Assembly: GCA_051294375.1 (NCBI GenBank)
Contig: CM119267.1
Location: 19,278,773 to 19,342,772, forward strand
Direction of reading: 5' to 3'
From: Paraspadella gotoi
Taxonomy: Eukaryota > Animalia > Chaetognatha
Length of the DNA: 64,000 bases
Under the pieces are notes generated by a model. It saw only the letters and a program-made list of their open reading frames with translations, had not been told where the DNA came from and did not search any database. The translations under genes and the position numbers were made by a program. Positions 7,223 through 11,852 of the stretch are shown piece by piece; positions within the stretch are counted from its first letter, which is position 1; every line of letters begins with the position of its first letter.

Positions 7223-7333
7223 TGCATTTCCCCTTTGCCGCACTCAGATCGGTCATACCACCACTTTGTTCTTTAATTTTGTTAGGTCACGCCCCCTCCA
7301 GTAATCAGGAGTACAGTGTATGACAAACAGTCC
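7223..7333 (-). CDS. GRIA: Flip/flop-position alternative exon E (fifth in transcript order)
   Basis: cttgtttag acceptor, then approx. [35 protein letters not shown], then gtattt donor. Confidence 0.88.
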
Positions 7334-8191
7334 CTAAACAAGAATAGAATGTAAGTTTTAAATATTTCTCTCATGACACCTTATAGCTGTTTTTCATTTC
7401 AGAGTTTTGTTTTTTTTTTAAGGATGATTTGTTGGTCATCATAGATGGAGAAGGTTTAAAAAAGCGAAAATGGTGCAAGTTGTCGCTGTGTTTTAAATTT
7501 GATAGAAAAAGGGACAGCGTTTTATATTCAATTGCACGTAGCAAAATTTGGCTTAAAATTAAACGCGCCGCAACAAAAAAACTTTTTTCGCAAAGAGGTC
7601 AATGTTAAAAAAAATTTTATGTTGAATATCTTATTGTTTAAAACTTGCCATTGGAATGTTTCTTAATAACGAAAACACTGATTAACCTCACATGGCGTTA
7701 GCAGTGACATAAAATGAAGATAAGAAAACATTTAAAGCAGACCATCACAATCCTGAATCCATGCACAACCAAAGTTCCTGTTTGCCGAAACAAACAAAGT
7801 TTGCTTAAACTTAAAAACGATGGCCCCAAAGCTATCTCTTACATGGCTTGAATATGGAATCATATTAACTACTGAGCTTGATATTAAAGAATAGTTTATG
7901 AGGTTTTCTCAAACAATTTTCTGTTTTGTTTTTTAATCCCTCCTGCTTGGATTTCTTCAAAAAATAATTGTGCTCTTAGTGATTAAAACGCATTTTTTCT
8001 TAAAAAAAGAAAACCTACTTTCCAACTGTGAAAGCTCGAAAAACTACTCTTGGGGGAATGACATCCAATAAAATCCTTATTTTTCCAAATCAAGAATTCC
8101 AACATGGATTAAAAACGAAAAAAAATTTTTAGGAGAAAGAGGAAGAGAGCGAGATATAGACGAAAAACTATTTAACAGCAAAAGCTAGTAC

Positions 8192-8311
8192 CTTGTAACC
8201 ACATACGTTTTTGGCCACACTCAGATCTATCATTGCACCATTTCTTCTTCAGATTAATCATTCAACCATCTTCTTGCAATGATTAATACAGCTAGCGAGA
8301 TCAAACTTTTG
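8192..8311 (-). CDS. GRIA: Flip/flop-position alternative exon D
   Basis: caacagcag acceptor, then approx. ISLAVLSLQEDGxxINLKKKW(W/C)NDRSECGQK, then aag|gtacta donor. Confidence 0.82.
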
Positions 8312-8418
8312 CTGCTGTTGTTGTGTAAAAAAAATAAGCGGGTGGGAGCGAAGGGAAAAAAAACCCGGGACTTTTTGTTTTAGACAGCCTAAGTGGATCG
8401 GGTTCCGTCGGGTCGTAC

Positions 8419-8527
8419 CTTGGCCTTGTCCTGGCCGCACTCGCTGCGGTCATGCCACCCACTTTTTCTTGAGGCGGTGCAGCTGAGCCGTCCTCTTGAA
8501 GCGCAACACACTCAACGAAATGCATGA
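8419..8527 (-). CDS. GRIA: Flip/flop-position alternative exon C
   Basis: Approx. [36 protein letters not shown], then gtacga donor. The acceptor context is weak and purine-rich. Confidence 0.88.
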
Positions 8528-10769
8528 CTTCAACTCCCCTCTCCCTCCATTGCTTTCCGTTTTAGAGAATCAAGCATAAAGAATCTGGTTCAATTCTACT
8601 CTATAAGGTAGTATTTTTATCCGCTATTAATGCCTAATCTAACTTAGGATGTGGTAAAAGCAGACTCATTTTGCATGTCATTTCAAAAAGAAAAGAGAAA
8701 AAATAGGGTGGTCAATTCTTAAAAATAGACCTAAAGAAATTGAAATTTGTATCAGTCTGTTTTATCCAGTAATCATAAACATAAAACAACTTATGAAATA
8801 TTGGAAAATGTTGGCAAAGAGTCTAGTTTTGTCTAGCTTCAGCTTAGCAGGGTAGCAGGCCAAAATCTTATCTTATCTTTTGAAAACATATCAATCAAAG
8901 AAAGCATTTTTAATAATATTTAATTCAAAGATTCTGCCCTTCAGCTTTTCAAAGGCTCTTTTTTCACCTGCAGAAGGAAAAATTATCAAAGCATGGAAAC
9001 TTCTAAAATGAACAAAACATTTGACATTAGGGTTGACAAAAAGAAAGAATAGAAAATTTAACATACGGTAGAACAACAAATCGTATTTCCTTTCTTTTTA
9101 ATTTAAAAGATTAAATAAACCAGCCTGTGATTTTAAAAAATATCTTTACAACGTAAAATAAAGCAGAGGAAAATAGAAAAGCTACCTCACAAAACACTAG
9201 TTTAAAGTTTTGAAAATGAGAGAACAAATAAAACCGATTTATTTGTTTCAACCCAATTTAAAACCAGTATTTATTTCTTTGTAAAATTAATATACTTAAG
9301 TCATTAAATTCCTTACATCCATGTATAAAAAATCATGCGATAATGTTACGAAAAGTCTCAAGAGTTTTCAATGTTTGATTTTGTTCTTATTTGCAATAGT
9401 CAGGGATAAAGTGGTTTTGTTTTTAAAGCCAAAGAATTAAGACACATTTAAAGAAGTTAAAAGGTAATGAAACAAAATACTAGAAAAGAACAGCCCAAAA
9501 ACAACATTGAAGAAGAGGTTCATGCAAATTTCCTAACATAAATAGGTCGATGATTTGTAATTTGGTGTTTTTCAACCAAAACTGGGCGAAATAATTAACT
9601 TCTTTCCAGTTTGGAATGAGAAAAATATTTTAACGACACTGAAGTAATTAATCCAAGCAAATTTTGTCAGGTAACCCAATGAAACTAAATATTCTAAGTT
9701 GAAAAAATTATTAACACTATGCTGTAGGAATACAATGGTCTTAATATCTTACAACTCTTTTTAAACACTCGAGGTTTTTTTCAATTTTAGAAGAAGGTAC
9801 CATAAATCACGTCCGGACATCTTCTCGACGTCAAGAGGCGTTTTTCACACAGCAAAAATATTTTTTTCCGAAGCCAAAAAGTCCACTTTGGTGCATTATT
9901 TAGTATGTTACCTCTGGTATCTTGACACAAAAAGAAACGTATATCATGCTTAAAATATCATGCATCCAATAACCCAATGTTGTATCCATGGTTCTACTGG
10001 ATTCGGATAGGAAGGAGACATGCATTAGTCCTCCAAAGGAGACAAAGTCTTCAATTTTCCGACAATAGCAATTCCAAAAAGAAGGAATGCTTCATTGAAG
10101 ATAGAAACTTTGCCAACTGTTTGAACAAAATAATTCTTTTAACAACAAGCGAAGGTCAGCTAAAAAGTTGCTTTAGTTTCAATTTCATTTCTTGCTTCTG
10201 CTGTCTTTTAATCAAGTGGAATCCATGAAATTCAAAAAGTAATATATGTTAGTTGATGTGTTCTAGGAAAATCAAAGTGCTTGGTTAGTCTTTGTGAAGG
10301 AGTGAGTATGGTGTGATGAACTGAAACCGCGCTTAGTGGATATTGATATGAAAATAGTTTTAATTTTATTACTTTTGGTTGAAAAGTTTAGTAGTAAAGT
10401 GATGAAGAATTTGGTTATTATTGCAATGTTTTTTTTCTTAATTGATAAAAATTAATACAAGCTTTTCAAGCATGCAAATTGAGTTTTGTATTTCGTTTCA
10501 TTAGTAAAGCATTTTGTATCATTCGAAATTTTAGTAATGTAGTATCAATGTTTTTTTTTCAAATCTCTTATTATTGCCAGGAGGCAAACAATATCTTTGT
10601 TAGTAAGCATTGCTTAGCCATTCTATTTAAACATTGACATAATGATTTCAAACTTAATGAGTCGGAATTTCTCATTCGATTAATGAGATCGTACCAACAA
10701 ATCTATGGCAAGATCTATGAACGAAATCCTTTTTTTTTTTCAAAAAAGTTGTTCTGAAGGTTCAAATAC

Positions 10770-10894
10770 CTTTGAGCCTTTTTCTCCCCTTGTCCACATG
10801 CTCCAGATCGGTCCATAACCACCAATTTCGTTTTTAGCTTTTGACAGTCGGCCACTTTCTAGCAGTTCCTAGAGTAGTTAGAGAAGCACACGTC
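10770..10894 (-). CDS. GRIA: Flip/flop-position alternative exon B
   Basis: ccttttatag acceptor, then approx. [38 protein letters not shown], then gtattt donor. Confidence 0.85.
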
Positions 10895-11737
10895 CTATAA
10901 AAGGTGGAATTTAATTTTCACGCACAGCGTAAGACAGCTTAAGCCAGTAGAATTTTTTTTTTTTGCATAATTTATTTAACTGCCTAAAAATTAGATAATT
11001 AGAGAAAGCGCGCGCTTAACCTCTTGCAATTAAAAAAAAATTATTTTCATGAAAAGATTTAAATTTAATGTTGGTAGCCATGCAGGTTCAATTGGTTTCA
11101 TGACCATGGTGAGGTAAGTGGAAGAGGGAAATGAAGATTTGAGCAGCGTTATTACTCTTGCGGCTTCGTTGCTGATTAGCGTTTGCAGTATTTCTCTTTT
11201 GGCTGAATGCAGTGACAGTAATGGATAGTACTACTTAGGTTTTTAAGTTACTCCCCCTATATTCGCTAAATCTTCGAGAAAATGAAATGATTTAAAAATT
11301 AAAAAAAAAAATTTCTTTGATTACAGATTTAAAAAAACTAAACAATGCACAAAGATGAGATGCTGATAAGAGAACATTGGTGAAAAAATCCAAGACCAAA
11401 TAGAATAGCGTATTTCGAAATTAAGATAGAGTAATGTTTGCTAATAAAAATATGCTAAGTTGCAATCGGCTATCTATTTCTTTTAAATTTTTTTTTCGCG
11501 CTAGAAAAGAGAAAAAGAGTAGCAACCAAAAAAAATTACTCAAATGATTACACTTTATTCAATTTCCTAAAAAAAAAACAGATACCAAAATCGAGTTTTC
11601 TAAAAATTTCCCAGAGAAATCCGGGGGAGAAAATGTGGGGGGAATTTGTAGAAAAACCGAAAAAAAGCGAAATTAAAAAAAAAACAAAAAACAAAACAAC
11701 AATCGGGAGTTTGAGTTTTTTTGTGATCTTTTCTTAC

Positions 11738-11852
11738 TTTGCGGATTCCCTGTCGCGCAACATCGCTCACGGTCACGCAACCACTCTTTTTTACACCTAA
11801 AACGCTTACCCCGTCCTTCTTGTAGCTTAAGAATCTGGAGTGATATGCAACT
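11738..11852 (-). CDS. GRIA: Flip/flop-position alternative exon A (first in transcript order)
   Basis: [12 protein letters not shown] is visible in ORF 11673..11921, followed by a degraded KKxWxRDRSxC and a gtaaga donor; 115 nt. Confidence 0.75.

Follow-up and report, generated by a model that had tools for sequence, protein, structure and literature searches.

Five tandem copies of the exon encoding the helix J/K stretch were found in one invertebrate AMPA-type ionotropic glutamate receptor gene, on the minus strand of the 64-kb stretch of DNA analyzed here (the window). The finding lies beyond chance and is confirmed in substance by the analyses below. We propose, with a probability of about 78%, that these are five paralogous exons at the flip/flop position of this gene, of which likely one is included per mRNA and which likely confer different desensitization.

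Five J/K copies in a single AMPA-type gene

The five segments (c1 to c5, cf. Table 1) were scored in a frameshift-aware manner with a profile built from 12 AMPA receptors, from which the window sequence was excluded. The scores were 44, 52, 82, 66, and 86, while no base shuffle (60 per cassette) exceeded 29. In a leave-one-out nhmmer search over 64 kb, each left-out cassette was the top new match, with E values of 0.082, 0.022, 0.0069, 1.2e-6, and 6.6e-6, and no sixth J/K copy was found. An exact-repeat search revealed only a 37-nt family shared by c3, c4, and c5, among low-complexity repeats. An earlier note on this DNA, made without database searches, had described five segments that are indeed present at the positions it gave or nearby, except that c3 probably starts elsewhere. 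Its end of the upstream exon (13362) and start of M4 (about 6040) were borne out by AG|gt at 13362 and an M4 start near 6038. Its account of the cassettes themselves was not borne out as written: none of the five reads cleanly in the window and each needs inferred indels; only two of the five lengths it listed (115, 125, 109, 120, and 111 nt) are 3n+1.

Table 1. Features of the receptor gene in the window
Feature	Position	Strand	Evidence and remarks
Canonical M1-M2 pore exon, Gln at Q/R site	19325..19500	-	error-free duplicate at 2-160
Second, diverged pore-loop (M2) exon	16835..16970, 5' end approximate	-	z 21; second pore peak with 3/3 references
M3 exon	15121..15214	-	single copy
Preceding S2 exon	13916..14065, ends approximate	-	single copy
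Constitutive S2 exon upstream of array	13362..13482	-	sequence; single copy in 4394-21772 with 3/3 reference proteins
Cassette c1, most error-rich in window	11738..11852	-	z 7.9; intact counterpart P0266
Cassette c2, sister of c5	10770..10894	-	z 10.7; groups with c5 at 79/88
Cassette c3	8419..8552, probable start 8552 or 8540, not 8527	-	z 20.5; counterparts P0260, P0261, P0262, P0406, P0407
Intron c3-c4, 107 nt	8312..8418	-	length measured; about 97 nt in source of P0261
Cassette c4, tandem AG acceptors	8192..8311	-	z 14.7; intact counterpart P0259
Cassette c5	7223..7333	-	z 20.4; counterparts P0322, P0330, P0350, predicted 109 nt
M4 exon, phase-0 acceptor	5853..6038, 3' end tentative	-	z 5.1; one weak peak with 2/3 references

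The gene matched the Lig_chan domain (PF00060) at 4.4e-11 and contains the M3 gating motif and the pore loop, and in a comparison with PDB the best 60 of 229 matching sequences were all AMPA receptors. Its pore exon is 70-81% identical to AMPA-type matches versus 35-47% to four kainate-like proteins, the closest named relatives being annelid, mayfly, and priapulid proteins (77-81%, none identical), and its S2 follows the AMPA pattern in the alignment; querying PDB with an S2 stretch that carried a frameshift yielded two weak, unrelated matches. As judged from M1-M2 and S2, the host gene is an AMPA-class ionotropic glutamate receptor, nearer to AMPA than to kainate receptors. Between 4394 and 21772, the S1-M1, M3, two S2, and M4 exons gave one peak each, and the J/K exon gave five with two of three reference proteins and three with the third. 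The M4 exon is broken up by expanded homopolymers in the window. The upstream S2 exon ends with the first two bases of an Arg codon, i.e., a phase-2 donor; this Arg codon corresponds to the R/G site in vertebrates, in agreement with the earlier claim that the array follows the same phase-2 R/G junction as vertebrate flip/flop. A scan for an R/G editing hairpin at this junction gave no signal, with a z of 0.36 for the 96-nt fold, a value obtained on a short stretch of noisy sequence.

Intact counterparts, coding constraint, and predicted splicing

The best 150 of 693 matches from a HMMER search of ENA metagenome proteins were examined, and among them were eight cassette-specific, stop-free open reading frames (one of c1, three of c3, one of c4, and three of c5 type) with other intron flanks. 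All eight end in Lys or Gln followed by Val, corresponding to a phase-0 GT donor. The c1, c3, c4, and c5 counterparts each match their own type best: P0266 scored 146 with c1 versus 111, 101, and 73, P0259 scored 172 with c4 versus 137, 114, and 91, and P0322 scored 174 with c5 versus 110, 110, and 100. Matching residues numbered 39/45 between c3 and P0260 and 26/39 between c2 and the c5-type P0322, identities that the permissive indel scoring inflates. No counterpart of c2's own type was found among the best 150 of 693 matches. P0261 runs from c3 through a short intron into the start of c4: its tail fits that start for nine codons, a length reached by 0 of 300 shuffles in a strict codon test, while under permissive scoring it obtained 38, below the shuffle maximum of 47. 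When metagenome contigs were searched for the end of the cassette with a degenerate DNA pattern, there were 0 matches.

The counterparts also bear on exon boundaries. The consensus motif given in the earlier note is close to them but not to the raw window, and likewise its expectation of stop-free exons of 3n+1 nt fails in the raw window but holds for the intact counterparts of c1, c3, c4, and c5. These four exons are thus predicted to start at a phase-2 Arg, to end in phase 0 before M4, and to measure 3n+1 nt; the P0266 exon would be 109 nt long if it starts at the Arg beside the motif. For c3, the acceptor proposed at 8527 is probably wrong, because in five of five c3-type counterparts Lys directly precedes xCISL, with no Arg or Ser there, and in four of five an Arg lies six codons upstream, with a pyrimidine-rich flank ahead where the sequence is long enough; the acceptor position they suggest is 8553|8552 or 8541|8540. 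Hence, c3 probably starts 13-25 nt further upstream and carries about six extra residues before helix J.

Pooled identity between cassettes was 172, 184, and 92 of 276 at codon positions 1, 2, and 3 (62/67/33%), figures that may be somewhat biased since the choice of frame was steered by the protein profile, and pairs with the same residue used different codons in 99 of 155 cases. This pattern across the five copies is one of purifying selection. Third-position identity is 0.24-0.46, near saturation, also in pairs with c1, c2, and c4.

Other readings of the array were weighed against these data. The window is a noisy scaffold in which block 3-4037 repeats 19338-23448 at 88%, and one could suppose that noisy reads were stacked or paralogous genes collapsed. 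Such an artefact is already largely refuted and receives next to no credence from us: read duplicates in the window are about 88% alike, whereas the cassettes are 62-77% alike; the flanking exons are single-copy; the c3-c4 tandem was found again in another source (P0261); and contigs bridge c5-c4-c3 (X4 record 14), c4-c3-c2 (X2 record 9), and c1 with part of c2 (X1 record 4), therefore read stutter is not the explanation. These contigs come from four of five listed public DNA runs, the window's own source sample possibly being among them. The assertion of the earlier note that the cassettes are not assembly stutter is thereby upheld, and the collapse of paralogous genes, which it had named as the case against itself, was not found, the neighboring exons being single-copy and J/K fivefold. 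Alternatively, the array may be real and only some cassettes used, with one or two (c2, c1, or c4) recently dead, in line with an apparent in-frame TGA near 8264 in c4, with c1 and c2 being the poorest profile matches of the five in the window (aligning c1 with its counterpart takes about 10 indels), and with the lack of a c2-type counterpart among the best 150 of 693 matches. However, frameshifts per 100 nt amount to 0-4.4 in the cassettes versus 4.0 in the constitutive pore exon, with none in its clean duplicate, so read error at the rate of the window explains the breaks; the TGA is absent from P0259; and c1 and c4 have intact counterparts. Recent loss would leave those counterparts, as well as the near-saturated third positions in pairs with c1, c2, and c4, in place, and we regard it as distinctly unlikely. 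Less probable still is that some cassettes are alternative terminal exons or intron read-through, yielding truncated subunits devoid of M4: vertebrate isoform records P0223, P0225, and P0239 do end shortly after the flop segment, but all four counterpart types keep the phase-0 GT donor at the same place, which fits splicing to M4.

Under the preferred reading of five functional cassettes, each of 3n+1 nt, mRNAs with zero, two, three, or five cassettes would run out of frame into M4 and would likely be removed by nonsense-mediated decay. The earlier suggestion that frameshifting enforces exclusivity is sound insofar as double inclusion would be penalized, but too strong, as the frame selects no exon. 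The cassettes are predicted to be spliced one at a time. In a scan whose power was lowered by read errors, no docking/selector pairing and no shared 6-mers stood out above shuffles; the best docking/selector values were 15 and 13, and the best among 12 shuffles each, run at a coarser step, were 12-14 and 10-15. The cassettes vary along helix J, and the residue corresponding to the Ser/Asn-754 switch of vertebrates is Gln in c1, c3, and c4 and Leu in c2 and c5. Since helix J contributes to the dimer interface of the ligand-binding domain, these differences would likely change gating as well as the sensitivity to modulators; by analogy with vertebrate GluA, the cassettes would likely tune desensitization.

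Origin of the array and relation to known exon clusters

According to PMC13520880 and PMC4494069, vertebrate flip and flop are a pair of exons that date from the earliest vertebrates and confer different desensitization. Flip/flop is described as a vertebrate invention, and PMC13520880, which dates from 2026 and deals with AMPA receptors of bilaterians, states that splicing of the invertebrate ones remains to be studied. The array resembles flip/flop of GRIA1-4 in its ligand-binding-domain segment, its junction after Arg, its phases (2 in, 0 out), and its AMPA-type host, and differs in having five copies instead of two, in predicted lengths of 109-127 nt versus 115 nt, in Gln or Leu versus Ser/Asn at position 754, and in far greater divergence (pairs of cassettes share 10/27 to 23/30 residues, flip and flop 27/33). 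In a tree of 33 residues, placeholder positions included, with moderate support, the cassettes were monophyletic (83/86), and vertebrate flip/flop formed a separate clade (94/93), which argues against descent from the vertebrate duplication and accords with the independent expansion presumed in the earlier note. Capitella, Helobdella, Hirudo, Priapulus, and Cloeon proteins each have one J/K segment versus five in the array. Among 27 other loci spanning the upstream exon to M4 (redundant, few lineages, with annelid-like and arthropod-like receptors), all have the same exon in one copy, and 17 have both flanking introns, the phases of which were read by eye as 2 on entry and 0 on exit. Records of ten invertebrate clusters (27 members) contained no same-species isoforms differing in the J/K segment, where present. 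No invertebrate flip/flop array was found in a literature search; for arrow worms, a possible source phylum, the paper examined for such splicing contains no passage on AMPA receptors or on mutually exclusive exons. A motif search of the supplement to PMC13520880 (12 of its 13 files) gave no cassette-type sequence, although trimming or line breaks can hide one.

The shared exon and two shared intron positions would also suit an ancestral duplication, common to vertebrate flip/flop and lost in most invertebrates. We consider this highly improbable, given the separate clades, the single copy in 27/27 other loci, and a Cys in the second position that is common to the cassettes and absent from 17/17 references. 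More plausibly, an ancestral single exon, bounded by phase-2 and phase-0 introns as in other invertebrates, was duplicated within the lineage, which would have given two types, c1/c3/c4 and c2/c5, probably through a first pair, then a block duplication, and then one further copy.

Tandem clusters of mutually exclusive exons occur in invertebrates in nAChR alpha6, Rdl, and Dscam. Like these, the array is a tandem of homologous internal exons that share one phase and are flanked by constitutive ones; unlike them, it belongs to a different gene family and yielded no detectable docking/selector pairing in our low-power scan. If the same exon was expanded convergently, and further than in vertebrates, the dimer-interface segment would stand out as one that is targeted repeatedly in the tuning of synaptic kinetics. 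Structure-function work on desensitization would also gain five natural variants that diverge far more than flip and flop do, and the array gives a compact case for asking how a single exon is picked from five that are incompatible in frame.

A second pore-loop exon

The second M2 exon (cf. Table 1) shares 128/169 aligned bases with the clean pore exon and is a candidate alternative pore exon; alignment of its upstream half to M1 was not clearly above shuffles. Tentatively, and with more doubt than confidence, we suggest that one lineage rebuilt both devices by exon duplication in one gene, i.e., a five-way flip/flop and an alternative pore exon, possibly basic at the Q/R site, giving up to ten subunit types. 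Calcium permeability would then be set by splicing of the pore exon instead of RNA editing. A PDZ gene neighbors the receptor gene, and its protein matched only general PDZ clusters.

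The array and the receptor gene that carries it

With three reference AMPA receptors, a frameshift-aware scan of the minus strand at 4394-21772 detected single S1-M1 and M3 exons, two exons each for the pore loop and for S2 (the S2 pair in succession), and one weak M4 exon that two of the three references picked up. It also detected J/K segments, five of them with two of the references and three with the remaining one. The M3 piece matched Pfam Lig_chan, and AMPA receptors accounted for all of the best 60 of its 229 PDB matches. An error-free pore exon shared 77-81% identity with annelid, mayfly and priapulid AMPA-type proteins, 70-77% with vertebrate ones and 35-47% with four kainate-like proteins. 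As judged from these sequences, the gene is an invertebrate AMPA-type receptor gene.

The earlier note had claimed that five homologous segments occupy the flip/flop position and are not assembly stutter, and both points were borne out. Each of the cassettes, c1 to c5, scored far above 60 base shuffles (z 7.9 to 20.5, with a profile built solely from 12 reference receptors) and, when omitted, was the top new match in a leave-one-out scan of all 64 kb. A sixth J/K copy was looked for in the window scans and not found. Their DNA is 62-77% alike, compared with 88% for read duplicates in the window. Moreover, single contigs from public DNA runs span several cassettes: X4 record 14 (7159-10210) carries c5, c4 and c3, and X2 record 9 (7410-11659) carries c4, c3 and c2, while X1 record 4 extends over 10855-11741 and continues for 245 more letters, 31 of which align again from 11818 within c1. 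Five such runs, none of them recorded as RNA, cover part of the stretch, and contigs of four were aligned; their library type is not on record, and they come from two studies and three samples at most, one of which may be the sample behind the window itself.

The window scaffold is unpolished and rich in indels, with ten N gaps. In its raw form none of the five cassettes reads cleanly, c4 having an in-frame TGA. Frameshifts per 100 nt amount to 0-4.4 in the cassettes and 4.0 in the constitutive pore exon, with none in the clean duplicate of the latter. Gaps dominate the differences from the contigs (217 gaps and 82 substitutions in the first piece of X2 record 9), and two substitutions at the c4 end agree with the end of P0259, a c4-type metagenome protein (among the 40 of 205 substitutions and 12 of 558 indels listed). 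One segment is a second copy of another at 88% identity, and part of the gene therefore stands twice in the window, as overlapping reads or contigs. What is doubled is the receptor gene's 5' half. The left of its two copies is the cleaner one and continues past the edge of the window, and the scaffold there may contain the array in a more accurate form. The c3 acceptor was probably placed 13-25 nt too far downstream in the earlier note, because in the c3 type a Lys precedes the motif and an Arg lies six codons upstream.

Features of the window, with predicted cassette lengths (all 3n+1 by construction of the chosen boundaries) and ENA counterparts (those named are among the best 150 of 693 HMMER matches)
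Feature	Position	Strand	Length (nt)	Counterparts
Upstream (S2) exon	13362-13482	minus
c1	11738-11852	minus	109	P0266
c2	10770-10894	minus		none among the 150
c3	8419-8552 or 8419-8540 (probable)	minus	about 127	P0260, P0261, P0262; two further members
c4	8192-8311	minus	115 or 118	P0259
c5	7223-7333	minus	109	P0322, P0330, P0350
Flank upstream of c5	7334-7355
M4 exon	5853-6038	minus
Error-free pore exon	2-160
Diverged pore-loop copy	about 16835-16970	minus
GC-rich stretch	about 16960-17210
Recurring 200-nt GC-rich piece	4394-4601, 1882-2102, 21284-21508
Doubled segment	3-4037, 19338-23448
MAGUK gene	27082-29700	plus

The recurring GC-rich piece occurs both at the gene segment's 3' end and within an upstream intron; it may be a repeat, a chimeric read end or a C-terminal exon. 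The receptor gene region has a head-to-head neighbour, an apparently intron-poor, discs-large-like MAGUK gene with a PDZ domain by Pfam and SH3- and GUK-like pieces by eye.

Conservation and origin of the cassettes

In the ten pairwise comparisons of cassettes, 172 (first codon position), 184 (second) and 92 (third) of 276 sites were identical; among 155 pairs with the same residue, 99 used different codons. The copies are old and have been retained as coding sequence. A profile containing window fragments, searched with HMMER against 1.84 billion representatives, yielded 693 matches, and the best 150 included eight cassette-type single-exon ORFs with other intron flanks. The eight counterparts have no stops, and c1, c3, c4 and c5 of the window are each closest to their own type. 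Every counterpart has a terminal Lys or Gln followed by Val, which is the reading of a phase-0 GT donor. In P0261, about 97 nt of intron are read through after the c3-type part, and the last eight residues plus stop can encode a c4-type start in another frame (nine codons, seen in 0 of 300 shuffles), so c3 and c4 are adjacent in a second source as well; under permissive alignment the tail scored no higher than shuffles. The array consists of five conserved copies in one gene, with junctions in common; it is real and probably functional. The flank upstream of c5 appears part-conserved with those of P0322, P0330 and P0350 (a similar short translated motif) and is a candidate splicing element.

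Invertebrate ion channel genes often contain exons duplicated in tandem. That this expansion was probably independent, as had been proposed, agrees with an exon tree (33 residues, 22 rows, none dropped) in which the five cassettes form one clade (support 83/86), with subgroups c1/c3/c4 (90/96) and c2/c5 (79/88), and vertebrate flip and flop form their own (94/93). A metagenome scan found 164 upstream-exon relatives, and none of the 80 kept loci had more than one J/K segment. Exactly one was present in all 27 loci spanning the upstream exon to M4, 17 of them with both flanking introns (phase 2 in, phase 0 out, read by eye); these 27 are redundant and from few lineages, and other invertebrate arrays could lie beyond them. 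The two HMMER matches with two J/K segments (among the best 150 of 693) are vertebrate flop-plus-flip read-throughs. The simplest history would be an ancestral exon module duplicated separately in vertebrates and in the Paraspadella gotoi lineage.

PMC13520880 places the origin of flip and flop in the earliest vertebrates and describes splicing in invertebrate AMPA receptors as still to be studied; a scan of 12 of its 13 supplements for five motifs found no cassette-type sequence. The GRIA exons are likewise given as vertebrate in PMC4494069. No invertebrate array at this position was found in the mostly open-access literature searched, including PMC8841521 and PMC12460157, which contained nothing relevant to such arrays; supplements or annotations beyond it may hold such isoforms.

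Predicted splicing and functional consequences

Because each cassette is entered in phase 2 and left in phase 0, inclusion of one would keep the reading frame into M4; zero, two, three or five cassettes would shift it, and such mRNAs would likely be degraded. The proposal that frameshifting enforces exclusivity therefore holds in part: off-frame mRNAs would be filtered, but phase alone selects no cassette. In this noisy sequence, docking/selector pairing in the array did not exceed shuffles, and no R/G editing hairpin was found in 96 nt at the upstream junction. The c3-c4 intron is 107 nt long, which could favour steric exclusion of this pair.

Helix J forms the dimer interface controlling desensitisation, and many of its positions vary among the cassettes. 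Cassette choice would likely alter kinetics. In vertebrates, the Ser/Asn-754 switch underlies the flip/flop selectivity of modulators (PMC12250081), whereas the cassettes have Gln (c1, c3, c4) or Leu (c2, c5) there in an ungapped alignment.

Other candidate alternative segments

The diverged pore-loop copy (z 21) lies between the canonical pore exon and M3, shares the apparent end phase of the former, and is a candidate exon of the receptor gene by its sequence. Where two Gln are expected, its in-frame reading is Arg-Lys; allowing for one deleted and one inserted base, it becomes Gln-Gln or Arg-Gln, and compensating read errors could hide a Gln-Gln. The GC-rich stretch upstream of it may belong to this second pore-loop exon. 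Mayfly GluA isoforms (P0240, P0243 vs P0167; Cloeon dipterum, Neocloeon triangulifer) have two alternative S1-M1-M2 segments at residues about 529-649, with the Q/R position occupied by Lys in the X1 form. Finally, the Ridgeia protein P0173 and the Logan protein P0253 differ at 7 positions in the 38-residue J/K segment (residues 747-780) and at 66 in 928 overall (binomial p 0.016), an excess that could reflect a tubeworm alternative exon or faster change between two species.
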